Shown here: positions 3,065 to 28,525 of the stretch, piece after piece | How positions within the stretch are numbered: position 1 is the stretch's first letter | Layout: the number at the start of each line of letters is the position of its first letter | The notes under the pieces: generated by a model | Told to the model about the DNA's origin: nothing | The model's input: the letters and a program-made list of their open reading frames with translations, nothing else | Databases searched by the model: none | Made by a program: the position numbers and the translations under genes | Assembly: GCA_016186365.1 (NCBI GenBank) | Contig: JACPLT010000022.1 | Location: forward strand, 5,777-37,776 | DNA: 32,000 bases | Source of the DNA: Candidatus Pacearchaeota archaeon | Lineage (GTDB): Archaea; Nanobdellota; Nanobdellia; Pacearchaeales; GW2011-AR1 | Direction: 5' to 3'

Positions 3065-3415
3065 TTACAAATAAACAATTCCTTCTTGAGTTAATACCAC
3101 TAAACGGATGCCCACTGGGAGTGAAAGCAGGGCAGAGATTAACGCCATGTGCTCCTTTCCTTCACCAGAAGCAATAGAAAGGGCAACTTCTGTTCCATTT
3201 ATTTTGCCTTTTAGCTTTTCTGCTATCTGCTTTTTCAGTTCTAAAATCTGCCTGTTTGTATCAATAGAAATAAATTCGTGATTTTTATCTGTTTCAAATT
3301 TCCCTGCGAATTCGCTTCCAATTAGAAATATGTTATCCCATTCTCCGCGGTTAATCAAGCCAGCTACCTGCCCCCAGCTCCCTTTTCCGGAGGATAATAA
3401 TGCTACTAGTTCCAT
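3065..3415 (-). CDS. Hypothetical protein (116 aa), small Rossmann-like alpha/beta protein; CARF-like glycine-rich motifs are a speculative reading
   Basis: It has beta1-Gly loop VALLSSGKGSWG and a later IASGEGKEHMA. TTATAAA lies 27 nt upstream of the ATG, consistent with a leaderless first gene. Confidence 0.55.
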   Translation of the reverse strand: MELVALLSSGKGSWGQVAGLINRGEWDNIFLIGSEFAGKFETDKNHEFISIDTNRQILELKKQIAEKLKGKINGTEVALSIASGEGKEHMALISALLSLPVGIRLVVLTQEGIVYL

Positions 3416-3564
3416 GAAAAATGTATGAAGGGGGAGTTTATAAGAATTTATATTGTAAAATGAAAATAAAAAGGTTTAAAAATGCCTGAAAATTGGAAGA
3501 TAAGTCATTCACTACATCGTTGAATGCAATTTTCTTGCATTAGACGCATTATGTAGGAGACATA

Positions 3565-3648
3565 TTCAAAAATGCACGAAACAAACAGCATTTTTGAAAT
3601 CCAGAAAATCAGGGATTTTCTGGCTTTTAAACTCTGAAGAGATTTAAA
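3565..3648 (+). repeat. Hairpin cassette copy in the L1 operon leader: module A (3565-3598), module B (3601-3623), CTTTT, weak C-like hairpin (3629-3645)
   Basis: A is TTCAAAAATGC / loop ACGAAACAAACA / GCATTTTTGAA. B is CCAGAAAAT / CAGGG / ATTTTCTGG. The same modules recur at 18492, 26515 and 27891. Confidence 0.85.
3572..3637 (+). other. Leader uORF (21 codons, MHETNSIFEIQKIRDFLAFKL) ending 12 nt before the rpl1 ATG
   Basis: The ATG lies inside the 5' arm of hairpin A. The same frame is open in all four A-B copies. Confidence 0.45.
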
Positions 3649-4296
3649 ATGGAAAATAAAACTATACTAGAAGCTTTAAAAAAGCTGAGAGCGAATGAGA
3701 AAAGAAAATTTCCACAGACAGTGGACTTAATTATTAATCTGAAGAATTTTGATATAAAAAGAGAGAGTGTCAATTTATTCTTAAATCTGCCGCATAAAAT
3801 AAAGGAAATAAAAGTGGCAGCATTTCTTGATAAAAAAAGCGGGATTATTGACAGCATTACAAAGCCGGAATTTGAAAGGTATAAAGATAAAAGAGTTATT
3901 AAAAAGCTGGTTAAAAATTATGACTTTTTTATGGCTTCTGCATCATTAATGCCTGCAATTGCATCAGCCTTTGGAAGATATCTTGGAAGCGCTGGAAAAA
4001 TGCCATCTCCACAGCTAGGTATAATAAAAGAGGAGTTAGACAGCGAGATTAAGAAAGTTGTTGAAAAAATGGAAAAAACAATAAAAGTAAAGAGTAAAGA
4101 GCCAAGCTTAAAGTTCGCAATAGGCAATGAAAATATGAGAGATGAAGATATAGCTGAAAATATTATTCTTGCGTATAATACTATACTTAATAGTTTATCA
4201 AAGAAAAAAGAGAATATCAAGTCAATTATGCTAAAATTTACTATGACAAAACCGATAAAATTAGAAGACCAAAAAAATGAAGAGGTGAAAAAGTAA
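3649..4296 (+). CDS. rpl1: 50S ribosomal protein L1 (uL1)
   Basis: uL1-like sequence (FPQTVDLIINLK...) in the conserved archaeal position upstream of P0 and P1. Confidence 0.9.
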   Translation: MENKTILEALKKLRANEKRKFPQTVDLIINLKNFDIKRESVNLFLNLPHKIKEIKVAAFLDKKSGIIDSITKPEFERYKDKRVIKKLVKNYDFFMASASLMPAIASAFGRYLGSAGKMPSPQLGIIKEELDSEIKKVVEKMEKTIKVKSKEPSLKFAIGNENMRDEDIAENIILAYNTILNSLSKKKENIKSIMLKFTMTKPIKLEDQKNEEVKK

Positions 4297-4297
4297 G

Positions 4298-5131
4298 ATG
4301 AAAGGGAAAACTGAAAAAAAACAGAATAGAAAGAAGGAAATTCCAAAGAAAAAACTGGACAGCGTGACAAATATCGCCAAATTAATAAAAGAAAGCAGTT
4401 CTGTTGTTCTTGTTTCAATTAAAAACCTCCCGACAAGCCAGTTTCAGCTTATAAAGAAAAAATTAAGGGGAAAAGCAGTAGTTATTGTAGCTAAAAAAAA
4501 TATAATAAAAAAAGCGATTGATGATTCAAAAAAAATTTCAATTCAGGATTTGAAGAAATATCTAAAAGAAGATTTGGCAATAATGTTTTCACAGGAAAAT
4601 CCTTTTGAGCTGTCATCTATTTTGTCCAGAAATAAATCTATGGCAAAGGCAAAGGCAGGGCAGGAAGCTTCAGAAGACATTACTATTGAACCTGGGCCAA
4701 CAGACCTTGTTCCTGGGCCGATAATATCCGAACTTTCAGGATTAGGGCTAAAATTCATAATTGAAGACGGAAAAATTAGCATAAAAGACAAGAAAGTAAT
4801 AGTAAAAGCCAAGGAAAAGATAAGCGAGGGGGCGGCTAGCATCATGTCTAAACTCGATATGAAGCCCGTAGCAATAGGATTAGAGCCATTAGTGGCATTT
4901 GATGCTAAAGAGAATAAGATATATGAGAATATAAAGATTGATTCAGACAAAACATTAGAAGAATTAAAACAGGCGAATGCAAAGGCATTAGCATTTGCAG
5001 TAAAAATTGCCTATCCCTGCAAGGAAACCATAAGATTTATCCTTGGAAAGGCATTGAGCCATTATCAGGCATTGGGCAAGCTTATTAAAACAGAGAATAT
5101 TCCACAAGAAAATACAACGGAGGCAAAATAA
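4298..5131 (+). CDS. rplP0: 50S ribosomal stalk protein P0 (uL10), short form lacking the acidic C-terminal tail
   Basis: It has a uL10 N-domain and a TAAGATG junction after rpl1. It ends ...IPQENTTEAK, without the GLSALFG-type tail seen in P1. Confidence 0.88.
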   Translation: MKGKTEKKQNRKKEIPKKKLDSVTNIAKLIKESSSVVLVSIKNLPTSQFQLIKKKLRGKAVVIVAKKNIIKKAIDDSKKISIQDLKKYLKEDLAIMFSQENPFELSSILSRNKSMAKAKAGQEASEDITIEPGPTDLVPGPIISELSGLGLKFIIEDGKISIKDKKVIVKAKEKISEGAASIMSKLDMKPVAIGLEPLVAFDAKENKIYENIKIDSDKTLEELKQANAKALAFAVKIAYPCKETIRFILGKALSHYQALGKLIKTENIPQENTTEAK

Positions 5132-5416
5132 ATGGAATATGTATATGGCGCCTTGCTATTGCATAAATTAGGACAGCCAGTAAGTGAAGAAAACTTGAAG
5201 AAAGTTATAACTGCTGCTGGAAGCAGTGTTGATGAAGCTAAAGTGAAAGTTTTAGCTGCAAGCTTGAAAGATATAGATATAGGGAAAGAGCTTGAATCTG
5301 CAACACTCGCAGTAGCTGCTGGACCAAGTGCAAGTGCAGGAACAGAGAAGAAAGAAGAAAAGAAAGAAGAAAAAGCTGCTGAAGCTGCTGAAGGATTAAG
5401 CGCACTCTTCGGATAA
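5132..5416 (+). CDS. rpl12: 50S ribosomal stalk protein P1 (aL12)
   Basis: Starts MEYVYGALLLH, has a KKEEKKEEK hinge and the canonical C-terminus GLSALFG. The junction with P0 is TAAATG. Confidence 0.9.
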   Translation: MEYVYGALLLHKLGQPVSEENLKKVITAAGSSVDEAKVKVLAASLKDIDIGKELESATLAVAAGPSASAGTEKKEEKKEEKAAEAAEGLSALFG

Positions 5417-7141: not shown

Positions 7142-9037
7142 TTAATAATATTTTTTGTAGATTAAATAAGCTGTGACAGCTAATACTACAATTACCAATA
7201 GAATTACTATAATCCAGGTGCTTAATGAAGAAGATTCCTGCTCAATCGTTTCTGTATCAGTACTTACTGGAGTTGAAGGGGTTTCTGGAGTAGTGGTTGA
7301 AGGGGTTTCTGAAGGGGCAGTAGTTGAAGGAACTGCAAGATGTATTGTTTTTATTGTGATGTCTGCCCTATTGTTTACTATTCCATTAAGCTTGACAGAT
7401 AAATCATAATAGCTGTCTGAATCAACATCAAATTTCTTTTCCTCTCCTGCATTAAATACTGCCTGTTGTGGTGTTGATGAAACATTGATTGTTACTGATG
7501 TTGCTGCAATGTCTACTACACCTACATAATGGTCTTCACTAGATATTTTTACTTTAATCCTTGAAGCCTCTCCTAATGCTTGAGTATATCCTGTTGCGAA
7601 TTGTGCATCTAAAGGAGAGTAGGTTGCTGTCCAGAATGAAGAAGCTGAACCGCCTCCGCCTGAAGCAGTAGTAGTGGATGTAACTGGAGTAATTCCAATA
7701 TCATAAGAGGTGCTGTTTGCAATAGCATTAACTGCATCTCTGCAGCTTATTTTCCAGCTATGCCCTCCTGCTGATAGAGAGCTAGCATTAATCGTATTTG
7801 TAGTGGTCAAATTAATGGCAGTAGCTGTAACAAAGACTGCGTTATCCCAGATTAGTGAGCAGTTTGAAACAGTAACATCGGTTACATTAAACATGAAATT
7901 AGCACTTACATCTGATGCTGCAGAAGGGGTAGGTGAAACAAGGGTAATAACTGGAGCGTTATTATCAATAGTGATTCTATAGGATACTGATCTATTAGTA
8001 TTATTCAAACTGTCATTTGAATAAACTGTGATATTGTAATCTCCATCAGGATAACGAGTAGCGTTAAAAAGCAGAGTTTGATTATAATAACCTGCAGCAG
8101 TTAAAAGTGTGGCATTAAAAAAGTCTGTTTGTACGCCTGATGAGGTATTAGTGATATTAAAGTAGACATTTGGGCTTACTGCGCTTAAAACATCAGTTAC
8201 ACTTACGTTTATTGTAAGATTTCCGCTATAATTGTTTCTATTAGCAGGAGTTACAAAAGAAACTGCGGGAGCAGTTGTATCTAAAATAGCTATTCTTGTA
8301 TTTGTTGAATTTTTAAGATTTCCTAAATTTTTTACACTAGCATTGTAAGAGTAGTTTCCACTTGGCAAGCCAGTCCAGTTAATAGAATAGTTTCCATCTG
8401 CAAGCGGAGCAGACAAAGTAAAAGTGGTAGTATTAACCTCTCCAGTAGTGTTATATAATCTAAAAGTGATATTTGTAGGATTAGCTTCTGTTATTGAAAC
8501 ATTAAAGTGAATTGCTGTTCTTTGGATAGGAGAGCTGCTGTTTGCAAGAGAGTTTGTGGAATTAGCAACCAGAGGGATAGTTGTATCATTTATAGTTACG
8601 GGAATATAAGATGAAAAATTCCCAGATTTATTTTGAACAGTTACAGTAATATTATATATTCCGGGAGTTGCTGTAGCATTTATCCAGAAATAAGCAAGAG
8701 AACTTCCATTAATAATAAATCCCCCTGTAGAAACGTTTATCCAGACTAAATCTTGAGTGGTATTAAAAAAAGAGGCAATTGAGCTATTTGTTCCATTTGA
8801 GTCTATAATGATTGTAAAATTAGATGGGAAGGTGATATTAACTCTAGTGATGTTTGCCCATTGTCCAGGGTCATCATTAGTTACAGTGATGTTATAATAT
8901 CTTCCTAAACTTTCATTAACATAAAAAGCAGAAGGAGAAGTTGAAAATGCACTGAAGACAAAATTTAAACTAATTACTGAGAATAAAATTACTGCAGATG
9001 CCAATATAAACTTGCTAGATAAATTATTTTTCACCAT
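7142..9037 (-). CDS. Secreted, C-terminally membrane-anchored surface protein with Ig-like repeats and very dense N-X-S/T sequons (S-layer/adhesin-like)
   Basis: It has an N-terminal signal-like MVKNNLSSKFILASAVILFSVISLNFVFSA and repeated D-T/N-T/N-A/I-P-x-V/I domain starts. A Thr/Pro linker, a TM helix and YKKYY follow at the C-terminus. It is a paralogue of 9113..12211. Confidence 0.8.
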   Translation of the reverse strand: MVKNNLSSKFILASAVILFSVISLNFVFSAFSTSPSAFYVNESLGRYYNITVTNDDPGQWANITRVNITFPSNFTIIIDSNGTNSSIASFFNTTQDLVWINVSTGGFIINGSSLAYFWINATATPGIYNITVTVQNKSGNFSSYIPVTINDTTIPLVANSTNSLANSSSPIQRTAIHFNVSITEANPTNITFRLYNTTGEVNTTTFTLSAPLADGNYSINWTGLPSGNYSYNASVKNLGNLKNSTNTRIAILDTTAPAVSFVTPANRNNYSGNLTINVSVTDVLSAVSPNVYFNITNTSSGVQTDFFNATLLTAAGYYNQTLLFNATRYPDGDYNITVYSNDSLNNTNRSVSYRITIDNNAPVITLVSPTPSAASDVSANFMFNVTDVTVSNCSLIWDNAVFVTATAINLTTTNTINASSLSAGGHSWKISCRDAVNAIANSTSYDIGITPVTSTTTASGGGGSASSFWTATYSPLDAQFATGYTQALGEASRIKVKISSEDHYVGVVDIAATSVTINVSSTPQQAVFNAGEEKKFDVDSDSYYDLSVKLNGIVNNRADITIKTIHLAVPSTTAPSETPSTTTPETPSTPVSTDTETIEQESSSLSTWIIVILLVIVVLAVTAYLIYKKYY

Positions 9038-9112: not shown

Positions 9113-12100
9113 TCAATTATACTTTTTGTAGATTAAATAAGCTGCGACAACCAATACTACAATTATTACTAAAATCAATGTAATCCACATGCTTAATGAA
9201 GATTTCTGTTCAATTGTTTCTACACTATCACTTACTGGAGTTGAAGGCGTTTCTGGAGTTTCTGCGGGTGTTGCAGGAGATTGAGGCATCAGTTCATTTA
9301 TTGTTTTTATTGTTAAATTTGCTTTGCTCAAAGAAATTGAATTTAACTTAACTGAAATATCATAATAATTATTTGAATCAACATCAAATTTCTTTTCCTC
9401 TCCAATATTAAATACTGCCTGTTGTGGTGTTGATGAAATGTTTATTGTTGCACTTGTATTTGTTAATGAAACAACACCTACATAATGGTCTTCACTAGAT
9501 ACTTTTATTTTTACTCTTGAAGCTTTTGCCAAAGTTTGAGTGTATCCTGATACAAACTGGCTGTCTATAGGAACATAAGTTGTTGCCCAGAATGAAACTG
9601 CCGAACCGCCTCCGCCTGAAGCAGTGGTAGTTGATGAGCTTGAAGGAGCGCTTCCTGAGACTCCTGGAGAGACACCCGAGAAGTGAGGTATTCTCATGTA
9701 TACCATATTTGAAGTGGTATTAATATAGCAAGGGGTAACATTAAGATTTGAATCGGTTTTACTGCAATTTATTCCTGATGAAGAAAGATAGTTTCGGTAT
9801 AATGCTGTAGAGTTATAATCTATAAAATCGTCAGTTAAATTTACAGAAGTATCTCCTCTTGACCTATTCCAAACAGCATTCCAGTTCTCATCGTATAACA
9901 TCGGAGTTGAAAGAGACATATCTGCAGAATCATTAATAGCAGCATCGTCAAAAGGCATGGCAATAACTACATAGCTATAAGCATCTTTAGGAGCAAAACT
10001 TCCGAATTGCCATACTTGATTTGTAGATGAAGCTCCGCTTGATGCCCGGTCATTCATTATGCTTTCCATTGGAGGCTGTTTAGCTGAAAACATATCAAAA
10101 TTCATGAACATTAAAGTTACTCCGGTACTTGTAATTTTCATCTCCATGTTTATTTTTCCAGCAACTAATGCTGTTAAAGGATTGAAATTTTTAGCAGAGG
10201 TATTTGTTATTACACAACTGTCTGCAGGGATTAAAACATTGCAAGCTTCAGAGTTTCTCAAGAATCTCATATTTATTGCGAGACTGGAATTCAATTGAGT
10301 GGAATTAATCATTTCCATCTGTCCTGTGGAATTAATTTTTTTCATTCCAACTCCTCTTCCATCTGACATAGTAGTCATAGTTATGTTAGCCTCTGATTGT
10401 GAGAGATTTAGAGTAACCTCTCTTGGAGGAGCATCATTGGAATATACCATTATTTTTGCCCAGTTGCTGTTATTTAGTATAGACATATAAAATGAGCCAG
10501 AACTCATACTTTCTATTATATAAGTGAGAGTTCCTGTAACTGGGTGTTTTATTCTTACATTTGCATTCATATTAGTTGTTATTGCTCCTCCTGATGAATT
10601 TACAATATTAATCTTAATCTTGCTGGTATTTACTCCGCTGGATGAATTGTAGTTTCCTGCTAACCTGAAAAGAGTAAGGTTATAATTCCTGTTTCCAGTA
10701 ATTGTAATGTTTTGAAAAGCTGCTAAACTCCAAGCATTTGCAGAATATACGTCAGGAGCAGCAGTTTTATTTTTAGCATAAGCTTCTATAAGATAGTTTA
10801 GCCCTGATGCAGAGCCCATTGCAGAAATGTTATAGAAAGCAAAGGCACATCCCAAAGATGAAGCAGTATAATTAATGTTTACATCTAAATCAATATCTCC
10901 CATGTCTGCCCTGAATGGGGGAACGAATCCAGGCCAAGGAATCATTTTCAAAGAGAAGCTAGTGATGTTTAATGCAGAGTTATTGGTTCCTGCAGACATA
11001 TTTATGCATCCAAATAATCTGTAAGTGTTAGTTACAAAGCTTTGATTTACAACTAATATCTGTCCTTGAGATAAGACACCTAAAGTTGAATTTGAAACAG
11101 GTGGAGTAGGGCAGGTAGTATCATTCATTAAACTTCCATTGCATAAACTGTGGAAAGTAAATCCAAAATTGCCATTTCCAGGGGTTCTTACAAACATGAC
11201 TGTAAAATTTCTGTCTATTGGAACAGCAATGTCAACAGTAGAAACACTAGTCATAAAATTACTTTCTGTTGGAAATCCTGAAACCTGATCAGTAACTTGA
11301 TAGCCAAATTTTTGTGCAGAGCCTGCAATTCCTTCGGACCAATTGTTAGCATATAATCTTAAAGTTGCTGCAGGTTGCATATAAAAACTTGTTCCATTTA
11401 GTGAAGGGGGTCTCATAAATTCAAAAATAGGAAGATCTGCAGTGGCTGGATAAAACATCATTGCAGGAAAATAAGGAAGACTAGTTCCTATTTTTGTAAC
11501 ATTGCAGGTTGAATTTGAGGAGATACATCCAGCAGCAAGCCCATATCTAATCATTTTTAACTTATAAAGTGAAGCAGAGCCATTAATATTTGGAAAAGTA
11601 AACTGCCCATTGGAATCTGATAGAATACTTGATTCATAAGATTCTGTTGGAGGACCTCCTGCTCCTGCGGCAACACGATACATTGAAACATTAACATTAG
11701 TTTCTGTTCCACCTGTTTCATTTTTAGTGTAACCTGAAAATGCGAAATCTACCCTGAAGTTATAAGAAGTAATATTGTCTGCTCCTGCAATGTGTTTAGC
11801 AGTCAGTGTAAAATTAGTAAACATCACATTTCCTAAATTTGCAAGAGAGATATTAAACAAAAAGCTCTGAACAGTATTATTTGGAAAAAATGTAAGTTGT
11901 GAAGTGTTTGTCCAGATTAATATTTTTTGTGGACCGGCAGTAGTATTTGTAAATACAGAATCGCCTGCTGTTGTTCTATTTGTATTAGCATAAAAAGTAG
12001 TTTCAAATGGGAGGGTGATAGTTAGTTGGGTGATATTAACATTGTCTGTATTGTTTAAAGTGATATTAACTCTTGTGTTGGATGTTCTGTTAAGATAAGA

Positions 12101-12211
12101 GGGAGTTACGGATTCAATAGTAAAAGCAAAAACAAAATTCAAACTGATTAAAAATGCTATAATTATAGTTGTTGCAAATATAAACTTGCTAGATAAATTA
12201 TTTTTCACCAT
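9113..12211 (-). CDS. Large secreted, membrane-anchored, sequon-rich surface protein (1032 aa), paralogue of 7142..9037
   Basis: Its first 11 residues are identical to the paralogue (MVKNNLSSKFI). It shares a C-terminal module of about 190 aa (ASGGGGSA.SFW...EDHYVGVV...SSTPQQAVFN.GEEKKFDVDS...), a TP linker, a TM helix and YKKYN. Confidence 0.8.
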   Translation of the reverse strand: MVKNNLSSKFIFATTIIIAFLISLNFVFAFTIESVTPSYLNRTSNTRVNITLNNTDNVNITQLTITLPFETTFYANTNRTTAGDSVFTNTTAGPQKILIWTNTSQLTFFPNNTVQSFLFNISLANLGNVMFTNFTLTAKHIAGADNITSYNFRVDFAFSGYTKNETGGTETNVNVSMYRVAAGAGGPPTESYESSILSDSNGQFTFPNINGSASLYKLKMIRYGLAAGCISSNSTCNVTKIGTSLPYFPAMMFYPATADLPIFEFMRPPSLNGTSFYMQPAATLRLYANNWSEGIAGSAQKFGYQVTDQVSGFPTESNFMTSVSTVDIAVPIDRNFTVMFVRTPGNGNFGFTFHSLCNGSLMNDTTCPTPPVSNSTLGVLSQGQILVVNQSFVTNTYRLFGCINMSAGTNNSALNITSFSLKMIPWPGFVPPFRADMGDIDLDVNINYTASSLGCAFAFYNISAMGSASGLNYLIEAYAKNKTAAPDVYSANAWSLAAFQNITITGNRNYNLTLFRLAGNYNSSSGVNTSKIKINIVNSSGGAITTNMNANVRIKHPVTGTLTYIIESMSSGSFYMSILNNSNWAKIMVYSNDAPPREVTLNLSQSEANITMTTMSDGRGVGMKKINSTGQMEMINSTQLNSSLAINMRFLRNSEACNVLIPADSCVITNTSAKNFNPLTALVAGKINMEMKITSTGVTLMFMNFDMFSAKQPPMESIMNDRASSGASSTNQVWQFGSFAPKDAYSYVVIAMPFDDAAINDSADMSLSTPMLYDENWNAVWNRSRGDTSVNLTDDFIDYNSTALYRNYLSSSGINCSKTDSNLNVTPCYINTTSNMVYMRIPHFSGVSPGVSGSAPSSSSTTTASGGGGSAVSFWATTYVPIDSQFVSGYTQTLAKASRVKIKVSSEDHYVGVVSLTNTSATINISSTPQQAVFNIGEEKKFDVDSNNYYDISVKLNSISLSKANLTIKTINELMPQSPATPAETPETPSTPVSDSVETIEQKSSLSMWITLILVIIVVLVVAAYLIYKKYN

Positions 12212-18451: not shown

Positions 18452-18453
18452 AC

Positions 18454-18591
18454 ATGACTAAAGAATTAAATAACCAACAGGAGAAAAACAGTTTAAATAT
18501 GCACGAAACAAATGGCATATTTAAAATCCGGAAAATTAAGAATTTTCCGGCTCTTTCGTTCCGGGGGAACTCAAGATGGGAAAGAGAATAA
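18454..18591 (+). other. Relay ORF (45 codons) from 3 nt after the rpl23 stop, running through modules A-B-C and ending 16 nt inside rpl2 in another frame
   Basis: MTKELNNQQEKNSLNMHETNGIFKIRKIKNFPALSFRGNSRWERE. Through the modules it uses the same frame as the other copies. Confidence 0.45.
18492..18575 (+). repeat. Hairpin cassette copy: A (18492-18525), B (18528-18550), C (18558-18570)
   Basis: A is TTTAAATATGC/GCATATTTAAA with loop ACGAAACAAATG. B is CCGGAAAAT/ATTTTCCGG, showing a compensatory A>G with T>C change relative to the other copies. C is GTTCC-GGG-GGAAC. Confidence 0.85.
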
Positions 18592-19274: not shown

Positions 19275-19275
19275 A

Positions 19276-19320
19276 ATGAAACTTAAAAAATTAAATAAAA
19301 AAAATATTTTAAAAATCTGA
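19276..19320 (+). other. Relay ORF (14 codons, MKLKKLNKKNILKI) starting 1 nt after the rpl2 stop
   Basis: Its TGA (19318-19320) lies in the loop of hairpin AAATC-TGAG-GATTT, 12 nt before the rps19 ATG. Confidence 0.4.
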
Positions 19321-19340
19321 GGATTTATTAAAATGGCAGA
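19307..19340 (+). repeat. 34-nt block TTTTAAAAATCTGAGGATTTATTAAAATGGCAGA, identical to 26575-26608
   Basis: Exact match that includes the start codon and next five bases of both rps19 and rps5. Confidence 0.9.
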
Positions 19341-23451: not shown

Positions 23452-23952
23452 ATGGCAAATGTAATGGAAGAGATAAGGATAGAAAAAGTTGTAATAAGTG
23501 TAAGCGGGACTGCGGAAAAGCTTGAAAAAGGAAGAAAATTGCTAGAAATATTGTCTGGAAAAAAACCTGCTAAAATGAAATCAACTAAAAGAATTCCCTC
23601 TCTAGGAGTCCGCCCGGGATTAGAAGTCGGAGCGCTAGTTACATTAAGAAGAAAACCTGCAATTGACCTTCTTAGAAGACTGCTTGCTGCTGTAGATGAT
23701 ACTCTTAAAAGAAGGCAGATTTCAGCAGGGACAGTTTCATTTGGGATAAAAGAGTATATTGAAATTCCAGGAATGCAGTATAACAGGGAGATTGGAATGG
23801 CAGGATTAGATGTGAGCATAAGCTTTTACAGATTGGGAAAGAGAGTTAAGATGAAAAAAATAAAGACTGGAAAGATACCTGCAAAAAACAAGATAAGCAA
23901 AGAAGAAGTTGAAGCATTTTTAGAAAATAAATTAGGAGTGAAATTAAGATGA
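23452..23952 (+). CDS. rpl5: 50S ribosomal protein L5 (uL5)
   Basis: IEKVVISVSG... and EYIEIPGMQYNREIGMAGLDVS. Confidence 0.9.
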   Translation: MANVMEEIRIEKVVISVSGTAEKLEKGRKLLEILSGKKPAKMKSTKRIPSLGVRPGLEVGALVTLRRKPAIDLLRRLLAAVDDTLKRRQISAGTVSFGIKEYIEIPGMQYNREIGMAGLDVSISFYRLGKRVKMKKIKTGKIPAKNKISKEEVEAFLENKLGVKLR

Positions 23953-24053
23953 AAAAACTTAAAAGTTTTTACCTATTAAATTTCAGGAGAAATTTAAGAT
24001 CCAGAAAATCTGATGATTTTCTGGCTTTTGATTTCCGGGGGAAATCAAAATGA
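23949..24053 (+). other. Relay ORF (34 codons, [34 protein letters not shown]) bridging rpl5 and rps14
   Basis: ATGA overlaps at both ends (23949-23952 and 24050-24053). Confidence 0.5.
23953..24049 (+). repeat. Hairpin cassette copy in permuted order: D (23953-23970), C' (23979-23994), B (24001-24024), C (24030-24046)
   Basis: D is AAAAACTT-AA-AAGTTTTT. C' is AATTTC-AGGA-GAAATT. B is CCAGAAAAT-CTGATG-ATTTTCTGG. C is GATTTCC-GGG-GGAAATC. Confidence 0.85.
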
Positions 24054-24666: not shown

Positions 24667-25205
24667 TGGTGAGAAAACCGATAAAAGATGAAGTTGAAAT
24701 TCCAGAAGGAATGAACGCCGAGATAGTTGGAGATGTAATCAAGATAAGCAAAGATGGAAAGAGTGTTGAGAAAAAAATATGCTACGAAGCAAAGATAGAT
24801 GGAAAAAAGATAGTAATTGAATGCAAAAGCCCCAGTAAAAATGAAAAAAAGCTGATAAAAACTACAAAAGCACATATTAAGAATATGATCAGCGGATTAA
24901 ATGAAAAGTATGAGTATAAAATGCAAATTTGCGCGGTTCATTTTCCTATGACTGTAACAGCTGCAGGGAATGAAGTAATTATTAAAAATTTCCTTGGAGA
25001 AAAAAAAGAAAGAAGGGCACAGATAGTTCCGGATGTAGAAGTTAAAATAGAAAAGGAGTTTATCACAATTAAAAGTGCAAGCAAAGATAAGGCGGGGCAG
25101 ACTGCTGCAAATATTGAAAGAGCAACTAAAATAAAAAATAGAGACAGAAGAGTTTTTCAGGACGGGATATACATAACTGAAAAACAGAAGGGGGCTACAA
25201 GATGA
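24666..25205 (+). CDS. rpl6: 50S ribosomal protein L6 (uL6)
   Basis: TGATG junction with rps8, two-domain uL6 sequence, conserved order. Confidence 0.9.
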   Translation: MVRKPIKDEVEIPEGMNAEIVGDVIKISKDGKSVEKKICYEAKIDGKKIVIECKSPSKNEKKLIKTTKAHIKNMISGLNEKYEYKMQICAVHFPMTVTAAGNEVIIKNFLGEKKERRAQIVPDVEVKIEKEFITIKSASKDKAGQTAANIERATKIKNRDRRVFQDGIYITEKQKGATR

Positions 25206-25252
25206 AAAAACTGAAGTTTTTACCTCTTTCGTTCCGGGGGAACTCAAGATGA
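25202..25252 (+). other. Relay ORF (16 codons, MKKLKFLPLSFRGNSR) bridging rpl6 and rpl32e
   Basis: ATGA overlaps at both ends (25202-25205 and 25249-25252). Confidence 0.5.
25206..25248 (+). repeat. Minimal cassette: D (25206-25221, AAAAACT-GA-AGTTTTT) plus C (25231-25243, GTTCC-GGG-GGAAC)
   Basis: 25224-25251 is identical over 28 nt to 18551-18578 (the rpl2 leader). Confidence 0.85.
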
Positions 25253-26482: not shown

Positions 26483-26599
26483 ATGATAAATAATGAATTA
26501 AATTTTGAGAGAAGTTCAGAAATGCACGAGGCAAATAGCATTTCTGAAATCCAGAAAATCGGGGATTTTCTGGCTTTTAAAAATCTGAGGATTTATTAA
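26483..26599 (+). other. Relay ORF (38 codons, MINNELNFERSSEMHEANSISEIQKIGDFLAFKNLRIY) spanning the rpl18-rps5 spacer
   Basis: It starts 1 nt after the rpl18 TAA and its own TAA ends 1 nt before the rps5 ATG (TAAAATG at both ends). Confidence 0.45.
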
Positions 26600-26600
26600 A
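26515..26600 (+). repeat. Hairpin cassette copy: A (26515-26548), B (26551-26573), SD-loop hairpin AAATC-TGAG-GATTT (26581-26594)
   Basis: A is TTCAGAAATGC/GCATTTCTGAA with loop ACGAGGCAAATA. B is CCAGAAAAT-CGGGG-ATTTTCTGG. Confidence 0.85.
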
Positions 26601-27305
26601 ATGGCAGAAGAACGCAGAGATAGAAGAAGAGACAACAGAAACCCAAGAGAATCAAGATATGGGAGAAAGAGAGAAGAGCCAGAGCCAAAGCCATGGGTGC
26701 CTAAGACAAAGATAGGAAAACTTGTGAAAGAGGGCAAAGAAAAAGATATAGACAAAGTTATAAAAGAGTATAAGATACTTGAGCCAGAAATTATAGATAA
26801 TTTGATAGAAGTTAAATCCGATTTATTAAGCATAGGACAATCAAAAGGAAAATTTGGCGGAGGAAAAAGAAGGGTATGGAGACAGACGCAGAGAAAAACT
26901 GCAGAAGGAAATGTTCCTACATTTGCCTGCTTGTCTGTTGTTGGCGACGAGAACGGGCATGTCGGCATGGGTTATGGAAAAGCCAAAGAGACACCTCCTG
27001 CCAGAGAAAAATCACTAAGAAATGCCAAACTAAATGTTTTTGCTGTGAAGAGAGGATGCGCAAGTTTTGACTGCTCATGCAACGAGTTCCATTCAATTCC
27101 TATGAAAGTTGAAGGAAAGTGCGGAAGCGTAAGAATCATTTTGATTCCTGCACCTCAAGGGACAGGATTAGTTATAGGGGACGAGTGCAAGAAAATTTTA
27201 AGACTGGCAGGAATAAAAGATATTTACAGCAAAAGATTCGGACAATCAAGAACTACAATAAATTATGCCAAGGCGTGCATTGATGCCTTGAAGAAGCTAA
27301 AATGA
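26601..27305 (+). CDS. rps5: 30S ribosomal protein S5 (uS5)
   Basis: Archaeal-type basic N-terminus, GKFGGGKRRVWRQTQRKT, and uS5 domains. Confidence 0.9.
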   Translation: MAEERRDRRRDNRNPRESRYGRKREEPEPKPWVPKTKIGKLVKEGKEKDIDKVIKEYKILEPEIIDNLIEVKSDLLSIGQSKGKFGGGKRRVWRQTQRKTAEGNVPTFACLSVVGDENGHVGMGYGKAKETPPAREKSLRNAKLNVFAVKRGCASFDCSCNEFHSIPMKVEGKCGSVRIILIPAPQGTGLVIGDECKKILRLAGIKDIYSKRFGQSRTTINYAKACIDALKKLK

Positions 27306-27724
27306 TTTGCATTATAAGAATACGCGGACAGATTGGAATAAGATATGACATAGATGAAACCTTATTTAGAATGGGAATTAGAAAGAAATATTCATGCATT
27401 GTTATAAAAGAGACTAAAGAAAATTTAGGAATGCTTGCTAAAATTGAAAATTTTGTAGCATACGGAAAGATAGACAAAGAAATACTGGCAGAACTTATTA
27501 AAAAAAGGGGAAAGGCAATAGGAAACAAGAAAATAGACGCAGAAAAAATAGCTTCAGAATTTGCAGAGGGAAAAATAGACAAAAGATTTTCAGAGCTGGG
27601 AATAAAAGATTTTTTTACACTGCATCCTGCAAGAGGCGGAATGGAGACAAAATTCCACTATCCAAAAGGAGTTTTAGGGAATAATAAAGAGGATATAGCT
27701 AAATTATTGAGGAGAATGTTATGA
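27302..27724 (+). CDS. rpl30: 50S ribosomal protein L30 (uL30)
   Basis: ICIIRIRGQIGIRYDIDETLFRMGIRKK and ATGA overlap with rps5. Confidence 0.85.
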   Translation: MICIIRIRGQIGIRYDIDETLFRMGIRKKYSCIVIKETKENLGMLAKIENFVAYGKIDKEILAELIKKRGKAIGNKKIDAEKIASEFAEGKIDKRFSELGIKDFFTLHPARGGMETKFHYPKGVLGNNKEDIAKLLRRML

Positions 27725-28029
27725 GGAAAAAAGGATTTATAGACAACTGCGCCGCAGCTTGCATTACATCTTTTTCGCAGTTCTCTATCTGTCTAACTGT
27801 ACTAAATTGTCATCTAACCAATGCAGTTATCCATAACAATAGGAGATTTGACAGCAAAAATTCATGCTTGGATAGTATGAATTTAGGCTGCTCAGAAATG
27901 CACGAAACAAATAGCATTTTTGAGACTTCAAGAACTTCAGTTCTTGATAGTTCTCAGAAATTAAAAATTTCTGAAATCCAGAAAATCGGGGATTTTCTGG
28001 CTTTTGATTTCCGGGGGAAATCAAAATGA
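27721..28029 (+). other. 102-codon relay ORF filling most of the rpl30-rpl15 spacer (not a conventional protein gene)
   Basis: Its ATG overlaps the rpl30 TGA (ATGA). Its last 44 codons (MHETNS...) run through hairpin modules A, A2, A3, B and C, and its TGA overlaps the next ATG. Confidence 0.45.
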
Positions 28030-28078
28030 AAAAAACAAATGAATTTTTTGCCTCATTAAATTTCAGGAGAAATTTAAG
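27891..28078 (+). repeat. Expanded hairpin cassette: A (27891-27924), A2 (27929-27946), A3 (27955-27973), B (27978-28000), C (28006-28022), C' (28059-28074)
   Basis: All stems are perfect except for one G-T (G-U) wobble in A. 27992-28029 equals 24016-24053 (38 nt), and 28055-28080 equals 23975-24000 (26 nt). Confidence 0.85.
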
Positions 28079-28082
28079 ATGA
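28026..28082 (+). other. Relay ORF (18 codons, MKKTNEFFASLNFRRNLR), the last link before rpl15
   Basis: ATGA overlaps at both ends (28026-28029 and 28079-28082). Confidence 0.45.
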
Positions 28083-28525
28083 AACTCAAAAAAAATAAAA
28101 AATCAGTAAGAATGAGAGGAACAAGGTTGCATGGCTGGGGAGCTAAAAAACATAAGGGAAAGGGGAATAGAGGAGGAAAGGGGTTTTCTGGAAGCGGAAA
28201 AAGAGCAGACCAGAAAAAAACTTATGTTTTGAAATATCATTTTCCTTATTTTGGAAAACAGGGATACACAAGCAGAAGCACAAAAAGAAACAAACTTCTG
28301 TTCATAAATGCAGGAAATATTGAAACAAGATATAAAGAGGGGGAAATTGATTTGAGCAAGTATAAGATACTGGGAGAGGGAGAGATTAAGAAGAAATATA
28401 TTATAAAAGCCAAAGGGGTTTCTAAATCTGCAAGAGAAAAAATAGAGAAAGCTGGCGGGAAAGTCATGGTTATTGGGGAAAAATTAAAAGAGACAAGAAA
28501 AATAGAAGAGAAAAAGAAAGTTTAA
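28079..28525 (+). CDS. rpl15: 50S ribosomal protein L15 (uL15)
   Basis: MRGTRLHGWGAKKHKGKGNRGGKGFSG. Confidence 0.88.
   Translation: MKLKKNKKSVRMRGTRLHGWGAKKHKGKGNRGGKGFSGSGKRADQKKTYVLKYHFPYFGKQGYTSRSTKRNKLLFINAGNIETRYKEGEIDLSKYKILGEGEIKKKYIIKAKGVSKSAREKIEKAGGKVMVIGEKLKETRKIEEKKKV

Follow-up and report, generated by a model that had tools for sequence, protein, structure and literature searches.

Palindromic repeats with a stop-free frame occupy stop/start junctions in a ribosomal-protein operon of a Pacearchaeota archaeon

REP/BIME, ERIC and pneumococcal BOX elements are small palindromic or modular (boxA-B-C) repeats located in transcribed intercistronic regions; some of them stabilize the upstream mRNA, and they occur in both orientations genome-wide. 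To our knowledge, systematic tiling of these repeats by ORFs tied to the flanking stop and start codons has not been reported. Rickettsia palindromic elements (RPEs) are mobile repeats of ~100-150 nt which keep an open frame and are tolerated inside translated sequence. REP and other small repeats have been reviewed (PMC3184786, which also lists the RPEs of Ogata et al. 2000), and mycobacterial interspersed repetitive units (MIRUs; Supply et al. 1997, as described in PMC12548453 and PMC3184786) have been proposed to insert at start codons and to carry an internal ORF coupled at -4 nt. Overlapping gene pairs can be coupled by termination-reinitiation (Huber et al. 2019, PMC6728339; 2023, PMC10666635), and gaps of ~20 nt almost abolish this coupling in H. 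volcanii and E. coli (PMC10666635). Short upstream ORFs 'delivering' ribosomes to a coupled downstream gene have also been reviewed (PMC12548453).

We analyzed a stretch of 32,000 nt (hereinafter, the window) from Candidatus Pacearchaeota, a DPANN archaeon, in which the genes for ribosomal proteins uL30 and uL15 are separated by a spacer of 354 nt. The elements filling this spacer are best read as an archaeal, hairpin-built analogue of the mycobacterial MIRUs. As in MIRUs, short intergenic repeats with internal inverted repeats lie within an operon, co-oriented with the flanking genes (here, the copies of modules A, B and C described below), small ORFs share bases (-4 nt) with the stop codon before them and the start codon after them, and filled sites can be compared with empty ones, the difference involving a 4-nt direct repeat (the window versus the related loci L001 and L091); for MIRUs, start-codon insertion with minimal effect on expression has been proposed. 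However, the host here is a DPANN archaeon, and the tandem 46-101-bp units of MIRUs are replaced by several different, near-perfect hairpin modules whose order varies. Moreover, the last module carries a Shine-Dalgarno (SD) sequence at its tip, the copies are concentrated in ribosomal-protein operons and leaders, and up to two ORFs are chained per spacer. Thus, the junction elements work like MIRUs but lie outside the MIRU family, from which they are set apart by organization rather than by sequence comparison.

The other systems are similar in more limited respects. Like RPEs, the elements studied here are palindromic, apparently mobile repeats with an open frame, but RPEs insert in protein genes and join the protein, whereas these form separate ORFs between cistrons. 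With REP/BIME, ERIC and BOX they share the small palindromic or modular build and the position between cistrons, and differ in the tiling by ORFs. Coupled overlapping gene pairs display the same ATGA junctions, with SD in the 3' end of the upstream gene and a requirement for overlap or a very short distance; there, however, two real genes are joined, whereas here one or two dummy ORFs would bridge non-coding filler, leaving an overlap at each junction. Finally, as with ribosome-delivering upstream ORFs, the role of the ORFs would be delivery rather than the peptide, and a repressive structure near the ribosome-binding site would be neutralized, but the ORFs described here would be fed by the upstream cistron and are embedded in putatively mobile repeats.

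An initial reading of the window from sequence alone had described an unbroken chain of ATGA overlaps between the two ribosomal-protein genes, and this chain was confirmed (all coordinates refer to the + strand). The uL30 gene (27302..27724, Pfam-confirmed) ends with TGA 27722-27724, overlapping ATG 27721 of a first relay ORF of 102 aa (ORF102; 27721..28029), the TGA of which (28027-28029) overlaps ATG 28026 of a second relay ORF (28026..28082; 17 aa, 18 codons with the stop), the TGA of the latter (28080-28082) overlapping ATG 28079 of the uL15 gene (28079..28525, Pfam-confirmed). Each of the three ATGs lies 6-9 nt downstream of an SD or SD-like sequence, namely, GAGGAG in the last codons of uL30 (27709-27714, 6 nt before ATG 27721), GGGGG (28013-28017) and AGGAG (28065-28069). 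The three junctions of the spacer accordingly show the geometry of termination-reinitiation, with a stop/start overlap (-4 or -1) and an upstream SD. The 3' end of uL30 (GAGAGGATGTTATGA/TAA) is kept in 68 relatives, in which the next cistron begins there. The sequence is not an assembly artefact: over 26579-28029, the window is matched with 100% identity by two Logan contigs, each from a different SRA run (SRR12113424 and SRR12113430), and both contigs end exactly at repeat module B.

Out-of-frame stops are as frequent as originally noted, the two alternative frames having 8 and 10 per 102 codons (~1 per 10-13 codons). The claim that the 102-codon open frame looks selected is supported by the relay frames across the operon (see below), but for this ORF alone the statistics are weaker than had been implied: 79 of 5000 dinucleotide-shuffled sequences contained a stop-free stretch of 100 codons or more (p ~0.016). 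Full tiling of the L30-L15 spacer by chained ORFs occurred in 39 of 20000 shuffles (p ~0.002).

The spacer is strongly folded (z = -7.1 overall, equaled by 0 of 100 shuffles; z = -2.7 for the 5' 166 nt alone), and its 5' part is, as had been observed, GC-richer than the hairpin part (0.37 vs 0.31). The latter is a modular cassette, A, A2, A3, B, C, N' and C' (27891-28077), preceded by a unique hairpin, X3 (27852..27890; -16.8 kcal/mol), of which no other copy was found. Of the six hairpins reported as perfect by the sequence-only reading, all coincide with ours within 1-3 nt, but module A contains one G.U pair and so is not strictly perfect; A, B, C and C' recur in the operon and A2 and A3 do not, as had been stated, but A3 resembles a shortened A. 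Module A (27891..27924) is an 11-bp hairpin with a conserved 12-nt loop, ACGAAACAAATA, and is present in four copies in the window (3566, 18493, 26516 and 27892) which display compensatory changes. Hairpins A2 (27928-27947) and the A-like A3 (27954-27974) lie inside an in-frame insert between A and B (27924..27974) that is 51 nt, exactly 17 codons, long and flanked by TTTTTGA and TTTCTGA. Module B (27978..28000) is a 10-bp hairpin followed by a U-rich tail; three copies of B scored as terminator-like (a G+C-containing stem, then a T run), with T runs of only 4 nt.

Module C (28002..28026), of which an identical copy is located 5' of S14, is a hairpin with the SD-like GGGGG at its tip and a 3' arm that ends at ATG 28026. 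No fold was predicted for the N' segment (28029-28050). Module C' (28056..28077), with a homologue, TTAAATTTCAGAGAAATT, in the related loci L042 and L018, is a weak hairpin (-4.8 kcal/mol) located such that its SD is 9 nt before the L15 ATG. The C' loop consists of AGGA, the first four bases of that SD, and the L15 AUG lies outside the stem; thus, it is at L15 that the proposed need for relay translation to open the start-proximal hairpin is least convincing.

The 5' 170 nt of the spacer, for which a small RNA had been proposed, consist mostly (27731-27845) of one copy of an interspersed double-hairpin repeat, X, found in other Pacearchaeota contigs on both strands. This copy (27731..27845, ~112 nt; 114.5 bits, E 4e-19) comprises hairpin 1 (27739-27788) and hairpin 2 (27794-27830). 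X was first seen as HMMER matches to parts of unrelated ORFs; DNA copies were identified in L098 (six), L099, L006 and L047, and covariance model R2 detected 10 sites in 5 sources, two on the - strand. The ORF102 frame contains no stop in any of the 10 copies, including intergenic ones, vs 1-6 stops in each of the other frames. Only L098 copy 1 and the L099 copy lie inside called ORFs, and the contig with the L006 copy, which may belong to an L15-SecY spacer, ends at that point. When the X peptide was used for a profile search, no copies were retrieved beyond two of those already known. In L098, the six copies are spread over 10.6 kb, and no transposase gene was called in this locus. In its dispersed copies, in their two orientations and in the lack of transposase coding capacity, X resembles a MITE; judged by eye, its ends, TATAGAGAACTGCG / CGCAGTTATCCATA, are candidate terminal inverted repeats that agree at 12 of 14 positions, and TA is found on either flank. 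That the 5' 170 nt, or X generally, represent a small RNA gene or a ribozyme-like RNA excised from the operon transcript is very improbable. The double hairpin is conserved and supported by covariation, the 5' part folds better than shuffled sequence, and the two hairpins switch their core sequence in concert (AACTGCG or AATTCTG), which would allow alternative pairings, all of which would suit such an RNA. However, Rfam contains no match, hairpin 1 of the window copy is interrupted by a C.C mismatch, and because the six L098 copies occur on both strands and often abut gene starts, X fits a MITE better.

The frame that runs across these repeats does not resemble a protein, in agreement with the sequence-only reading. 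A Pfam search with ORF102 yielded no match, and in a word-indexed search of 5.8e9 proteins its sole full-length match was itself. The 5' part does encode a Cys-rich peptide (5 Cys in 56 aa), with a codon score of -0.09 vs 0.17-0.46 for genes. ORF102 thus lacks the homologues, the domain and the codon usage of a small protein-coding gene. A resemblance of its MRKK start to a relic of the L15 N-terminus was considered and dropped, with only 4 residues in support. In this clade, the L30-L15 junction appears to be a hot spot at which small accessory genes are inserted: in 37 of 68 relatives it spans 187-1388 nt and contains protein-like ORFs (MazG-like, zinc-ribbon, NUDIX-like and metallo-beta-lactamase-like, as judged by eye) that are coupled to the stop of L30. 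By analogy, and given an open frame preceded by SD, ORF102 might be a real lineage-specific small Cys-rich protein. We consider this extremely unlikely: apart from the failed homologue and domain searches, the only similarities of ORF102 are to translated repeat copies, its codon score and purine content are non-coding-like, and its C-terminal half consists of hairpin modules translated in whatever frame.

Relay frames recur across the operon. In all seven spacers longer than 40 nt, an ORF starts within -3 to +3 nt of the point where the upstream stop codon ends, and four of these spacers are ATGA-linked at both ends: L30-L15, L3-L4 (17338..17436; 32 aa, spanning three hairpins), L5-S14 (23949..24053; 34 aa, spanning N-C'-B-C) and L6-L32e (25202..25252; 16 aa, with the direct repeat CAAGATGAAAAA on its flanks). 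In the L23-L2 spacer (A-B-C; 18452..18591), the ORF (18454-18591) starts 2 nt past the stop and overruns the L2 ATG by 13 nt, and in the L18-S5 spacer (A-B-C3; 26482..26600) a 38-aa ORF leaves 1 nt untranslated per end. The L2-S19 spacer (19275..19332; module C3) is the exception, with one relay-frame TGA that ends its 14-aa ORF 12 nt before the S19 ATG; in the other six spacers, the relay frame is free of stop triplets, vs 56 in their other two frames. Because the module copies are paralogues, the seven spacers are not independent trials.

The cassette modules are sense-only (+ strand) in the window, where they occupy six other ribosomal-gene junctions and, as A-B-C, the 5' leader of the L1-L10-L12 operon (3562..3648). 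Homologous copies are present in at least 4 other genomes. A search with covariance model R1 produced 17 matches in 6 genomes, all of them on the sense strand, and for 15 of these E was below 1e-4. In the window, the cells of the module stems are 100% paired and 5 pairs have changed at both positions (equaled by 0 of 500 shuffles); the comparison between genomes gave 95.5% paired cells and 17 double changes. Some module copies are 95-100% identical, vs 56-79% identity for the ribosomal proteins of the nearest relatives. A blastn-short search with the modules against 80 GTDB relatives gave chance-like matches; the covariance model later showed homologues to be present in a few relatives. Searches of Rfam (gathering and permissive thresholds) and for tRNA/tmRNA returned no match to a curated RNA family, and orthologous conservation is likewise lacking, the nearest relatives being without such spacers. 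Modules A-B were also inspected by eye as C/D-box, H/ACA or K-turn RNAs and rejected, the boxes being absent; no trans partner complementary to the A loop was found on the + strand above chance. The 5' leaders of L1 (window) and L3 (related locus L017) have no upstream cistron, and because A-B(-C) copies sit there, a relay cannot be the only context of the cassette. Furthermore, a B-like hairpin is located 3' of a gene at a convergent junction in L098, hinting at a role at transcript ends.

To place these spacers in a wider context, we examined 95 related loci, in which bridging ORFs were 3- to 300-fold commoner than in shuffled spacers: 38 of 119 spacers of 25-60 nt were bridged (12.9 expected), 29 of 90 of 61-150 nt (3.4 expected) and 97 of 144 of 151-400 nt (0.3 expected), start codons being assigned automatically, such that some counted spacers may be N-terminal extensions or real small genes. 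Comparison with relatives, the check that had been suggested for the relay, spoke for it: in the homologous cassettes of L032, L042 and L018, the ORFs again span from the upstream stop to the next ATG, with ATGA at both ORF ends, and L042 has a two-ORF chain in one spacer. In L032, a 1-nt indel has placed the 5' arm of B in another frame than in the window, and the bridging ORF is still kept. Unrelated junction repeats in L004, L003 and L010 display the same ATGA or near-ATGA bridging; the repeated spacers of L062 and L071 are mostly without bridging ORFs.

In the closest relatives the sites are empty, being reduced to ATGA or 1-4 nt. L001 and L091 have a bare ATGA at L3-L4 and L6-L32e, where the window has ATGA...ATGA; at the other five filled junctions, their distances range from -4 to +9 nt, most of them between -4 and +4. 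In most compact relatives, the L30 stop and the L15 start overlap by 4 nt or are 0-4 nt apart. Since the operons of the nearest L30 relatives (67-69% identity) are compact, the public data searched contain no orthologous copy of the L30-L15 spacer; a JGI metagenome scan with L30 found no relative above 57%, and an exact look-up with L15 returned no record.

Based on these observations, we believe that the L30-L15 spacer probably consists of translation-transparent palindromic elements placed at coupled stop/start junctions, which would preserve termination-reinitiation; translation itself is predicted from the arrangement of the frames. Two kinds of elements would be involved, X and a junction cassette (A, B, C, N, C') whose final hairpin, with its SD, abuts the ATG, each kind keeping one stop-free frame and being, in this sense, translation-transparent. 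A ribosome finishing L30 would restart at the overlapping ATG, using the SD in the last codons of L30, read 102 codons across eight hairpins (X hairpins 1 and 2, X3, A, A2, A3, B and C), stop and restart at the second ATGA, and translate 17 codons before terminating on the ATGA of L15. The hairpins would be unwound by the ribosome and the peptides would be by-products; selection would act on uninterrupted translation, in the sense of cistrons coupled by termination-reinitiation.

The consensus sequences of the elements by themselves account for part of the openness, and the entire arrangement might, in principle, be a neutral by-product of gene-start duplication and of selfish palindromes with a chance stop-free consensus, the ATGA ends being the duplicated target and the ORFs neither purposefully translated nor selected. 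In keeping with such a scenario, the relay ORFs begin like genes (MKLK..., as in L15; repeat family D11); direct repeats of the junction flank the inserts, X is open in intergenic copies too, and the p value of ~0.016 for the ORF alone is compatible with it. Nevertheless, this scenario appears improbable: duplication of ATGA sets no phase, yet 5 of 5 ATGA-to-ATGA intervals are in phase and stop-free, the bridging excess over shuffles is clade-wide and extends to unrelated element families, and the frame is kept despite the indel that shifts the B arm.

The hairpins could alternatively be cis-elements of ribosomal-protein mRNAs that serve the host, either as processing or stability hairpins or as translation-sensitive attenuators, in which a ribosome on the relay ORF would block the formation of B and transcription would continue; in that case, the purpose of the ORFs would be to control transcription or stability and not to deliver ribosomes. 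The sense-only copies adjoining ribosomal-protein starts, including the L1 and L3 5' leaders, the conserved loop sequence of A, the terminator-like score of B, the B-like hairpin at the convergent gene end in L098 and the occupancy of the L23-L2 junction in both the window and L018 all point in this direction. However, the closest relatives have no such elements, which are therefore dispensable, and their positions vary between genomes; they match no Rfam family, and X occurs on both strands and beyond ribosomal operons. In addition, the U tracts consist of merely 4 T, which is short for archaeal termination. We therefore regard host-serving cis-elements as rather unlikely.

As for the translation-transparent elements, the spacers would, if the relay operates, be natural experiments in which gaps of up to 354 nt are apparently filled with dummy ORFs and coupling is retained, and the MIRU idea would reach beyond mycobacteria to archaea. 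A search signature would then be available in the form of palindromic repeats that are phased, free of stops and bounded by ATGA, and annotation would call for caution, given that 'hypothetical proteins' within DPANN ribosomal operons can be translated filler. Tentatively, we envisage a broader possibility, namely, that Pacearchaeota harbor clade-wide translation-transparent palindromic mobile elements homing to the stop/start overlaps of highly expressed operons and carrying a portable start module (an SD-tip hairpin plus ATG) and an in-phase relay ORF. Because such elements would bring both the start module and the relay ORF, junctions could grow to hundreds of structured bases with coupling intact. 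If so, they would represent a natural archaeal demonstration of strong selection on coupling itself and might also act as a tunable brake that sets the stoichiometry of SecY and the ribosomal proteins encoded downstream.

The window is AT-rich (GC ~34%) and carries, on the + strand, an archaeal ribosomal-protein cluster extending from L3 (16385) to SecY (29933), as well as an L1-L10-L12 operon (3649-5416). Searches with S5 and L30 placed it in Candidatus Pacearchaeota (DPANN). The exact L30 is found in NCBI as a Pacearchaeota protein (P0002) on a 37.8-kb contig; the best L30 match anywhere is 67-69% identical, and the best species-level relative is locus L001 (S5, 79%; L30, 56% identity). Positions 26579-28029 were matched with 100% identity by two Logan contigs from different SRA runs, both of which break at repeat module B. 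Because independent assemblies contain the same sequence, the L30-L15 spacer is real. Elsewhere in the window, the - strand encodes two large paralogues, one of 631 aa (7142-9037) and one of 1032 aa (9113-12211), with DNA segments 80-84% identical at both ends (families D5-D8), which look like surface proteins, judging from an N-terminal signal-like segment and NxT/S-rich sequence.

All coordinates claimed in the sequence-only reading for a chain of ORFs across the L30-L15 spacer held on re-examination. The L30 TGA (27722-27724) overlaps the ATG (27721) of a 102-codon ORF (ORF102), the TGA of which (28027-28029) overlaps the ATG (28026) of a 17-aa ORF ending with a TGA (28080-28082) that overlaps the L15 ATG (28079). 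Each of the three ATGs is preceded, 6-9 nt upstream, by a purine-rich Shine-Dalgarno (SD)-like run, namely, GAGGAG (27709-27714, inside L30), GGGGG (28013-28017) and AGGAG (28065-28069). The 376-nt stretch folds with -110.7 kcal/mol compared with -73.5 for shuffles (z = -7.1); single hairpins lie between -4.8 (C') and -16.8 kcal/mol (X3, a unique hairpin at 27852-27890), and segment N' has no fold. The two frames not used by ORF102 contain 8 and 10 stops. Open runs of at least 100 codons appeared in 79 of 5000 dinucleotide shuffles, and the long ORF by itself is moderately surprising at most; chained ORFs tiled the whole spacer in 39 of 20,000 shuffles. ORF102 has neither a Pfam match nor a full-length homologue, including in a full HMMER scan of 1.84e9 representatives, in which residues 5-46 matched parts of four unrelated ORFs at 50-65% identity. 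Its codon score in the 5' part (-0.09 vs 0.17-0.46 in window genes) and its purine content (0.50 vs 0.65 for genes) are both low. ORF102 does not look like a genuine protein gene.

The 5' part of the spacer is not unique sequence but largely one copy of a repeat, element X (27731-27845), an ~112-nt double hairpin without a match in Rfam. Six copies are present within 10.6 kb of contig L098 (1215-1326, 3430-3541, 3729-3840, 3859-3970, 6790-6901 on the - strand, and 8417-8528), and one each in L099 and the Pacearchaeota loci L006 and L047. Both stems are backed by covariation, and the frame used by ORF102 is free of stops in 10 of 10 copies, compared with 1-6 stops in each of the other frames. 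Both X hairpins have the same core (AACTGCG/CGCAGTT; in diverged copies, AATTCTG/CAGAATT); as the core is altered in concert in both hairpins, alternative pairings are allowed. The ends of X resemble 14-nt inverted repeats with TA flanks. One L098 copy stops directly at the start codon of a cation ATPase gene. Also in L098, a gene that by eye is HAD-phosphatase-like (3369-3801; start MKKAIFLDRDGTLI...) and seemingly interrupted or truncated has one X copy read in frame and a second ~300 nt downstream.

The 3' half of the spacer consists of modules that recur within the window, on the + strand in every case: module A at 3566, 18493, 26516 and 27892, and module B at ~3600, 18528, 24001, 26551 and 27978. 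Start-proximal hairpins of five sequence variants precede L1, L4, L2, S19, S14, L32e, S5 and L15, and N segments lie 3' of the L5 and L6 stops. Some module copies are identical over 28-39 nt; the pairing of the A and B stems is kept in every copy, with five pairs altered on both sides (0/500 shuffles). Between A and B, the L30-L15 spacer holds an extra insert of 51 nt, exactly 17 codons (27924-27974), made of A2 and the A-like A3. The C3 copies before S19 (19307-19340) and S5 (26575-26608) match at 100% over 34 nt, the first 8 coding bases (ATGGCAGA) included, suggesting that gene conversion has crossed the start codons. A possible upstream ORF lies in the L1 leader (3574-3636), in the frame that the other A-B copies likewise keep open; it begins at an ATG within module A and ends at a TGA in the C loop, ~13 nt 5' of the L1 ATG.

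The relay pattern extends across the operon and the clade. In the L3-SecY cluster of the window, all spacers longer than 40 nt hold an ORF whose start lies within -3 to +3 nt of the upstream stop codon's end. ATGA links occur at both ends in L3-L4, L5-S14, L6-L32e and L30-L15; the L18-S5 ORF leaves 1 nt at each end, the L23-L2 ORF starts 2 nt past the stop and runs on 13 nt beyond the L2 ATG, and the L2-S19 ORF ends 12 nt short of the S19 ATG. The relay frame is stop-free in 6 of the 7 spacer ORFs, the other two frames of which contain 56 stop triplets; the exception is L2-S19, where an in-frame TGA ends the ORF early. Across 95 related loci, we surveyed 1372 junctions between consecutive ribosomal genes; a spacer counted as bridged when an ORF that opened with an ATG at its upstream junction had its end between -12 and +4 nt relative to the following ATG. 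Expected counts came from shuffled, length-jittered spacers. Bridging was found in 38 of 119 spacers of 25-60 nt (12.9 expected), 29 of 90 of 61-150 nt (3.4 expected) and 97 of 144 of 151-400 nt (0.3 expected), the last class not being clean evidence for dummy ORFs because it clearly includes real small genes. Other genomes carry their own repeated junction elements, mostly bridged alike: a 113-nt element at two junctions of L004 (ATGA to TAAATG, 38 aa), a 63-nt element at two junctions of L003, two related spacers in L010, four in L032 (downstream ATGA in 4/4, ATGA at both ends in 2/4) and three in L042, one with an ATGA-joined chain of 11 and 71 aa. However, repeats in L062 (2528-2612, 7449-7549 and 11008-11046) and in several L071 spacers mostly lack bridging ORFs, and these counter-examples speak against a universal relay rule.

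Elements in L032, L042 and L018 share the layout of the window cassette: an A-like stem (TTCAAAAAC...GTTTTTGAA), a linker, a B hairpin and an SD-bearing hairpin adjoining the ATG. When aligned with the B region of the window, they yielded 95.5% paired cells and 17 double changes. A covariance model built from these copies matched further sites in L018 (S17-L14 and L23-L2, the latter also filled in the window), a fourth L042 copy and the L3 5' leader in L017, and weakly L058 and the L3-L4 spacer of the window; all of these lie on the sense strand. Compared with L032, the window has an A-B linker one base shorter and so reads the B 5' arm in another frame; the phase is regained through a difference in the loop. 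In both, the ORF remains open and ends on ATGA. This is the comparison with related genomes that the sequence-only reading had proposed, and its outcome favours selection for an open, phased frame over selection for a peptide. A B-like hairpin (ACAGAAAAATC...GATTTTTCTGT) also lies at L098:10375-10424, 3' of the last gene in a co-directional cluster and facing a convergent gene; B is thus not strictly limited to ribosomal operons, and this position would fit a transcript-end role for B-type hairpins.

Empty sites were found in relatives: in L001 and L091, each of the seven junctions expanded in the window has a spacing of -4, -1 or 1-9 nt. For L3-L4 and L6-L32e, the filled site reads ATGA...ATGA where the empty one has just a bare ATGA; a 12-nt direct repeat flanks the L6-L32e insert. 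The short L30-L15 spacer of L007 ends in a duplicated L30 3' end, read in frame (...QRML*); L021 has a similar duplicate, but the relay ORF there (9 aa) comes to a stop 46 nt short of the L15 ATG. Of 68 Pacearchaeota relatives (loci L004-L077), 37 have an L30-L15 junction of 187-1388 nt with diverse protein-like small ORFs (e.g., L010:11002-11354, L008:2178-2381, L004:11134-11709 and L028:11125-11706), by eye MazG-like, WECECG zinc-ribbon, NUDIX-like and metallo-beta-lactamase-like, all beginning on or a few nt from the L30 stop; this junction seems to be a hot spot at which accessory genes insert. The L4-L23 junction of L001 and L091 carries a 574-631-nt insertion, which in L091 encodes an RNase T-like exonuclease within the ribosomal operon. 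In several loci, including L017 and L042, L30 sits 1.3-1.8 kb after S5; in these two, the S3-L29-SUI1 block maps between S5 and L30 rather than after L22, and near-identical repeats flanking it in L042 (98.6% over 143 nt) suggest repeat-mediated rearrangement.

Relatives conserve the 3' end of L30 together with its SD and ATG, and the next item, whatever its kind, starts there. Given that termination-reinitiation requires, by experiment, an overlap or a very short gap (PMC10666635), we propose, from sequence, that any insertion 3' of this ATG gets translated. An early stop, or an out-of-phase run over the next start, would leave L15 uncoupled or occluded; survival would be limited to insertions whose stop-free frame is in phase and ends on the following ATG. 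In the terminal hairpins, the SD-like run sits at the tip and is partly paired; a terminating ribosome would melt such a hairpin and also use its SD, a scheme compatible with both the RNA-unfolding and reinitiation models reviewed in PMC12548453. The ORF chain and spacer structure stand as observed; the relay interpretation has partial support.

The mycobacterial MIRUs are the closest known system. These mobile repeats are described as inserting at start codons and carrying an internal ORF with -4 nt coupling; both filled and empty sites, and a direct repeat of 4 nt, are also described (PMC12548453, PMC3184786). The Pacearchaeota junction elements behave alike; unlike MIRUs, however, they are archaeal, unrelated in sequence, made of hairpin modules with an SD-bearing start module, and clustered in ribosomal operons. 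We found no earlier description of these elements in the literature searched. The kind of system is known from bacteria, and the archaeal variant is new, structurally distinct and documented across several genomes.
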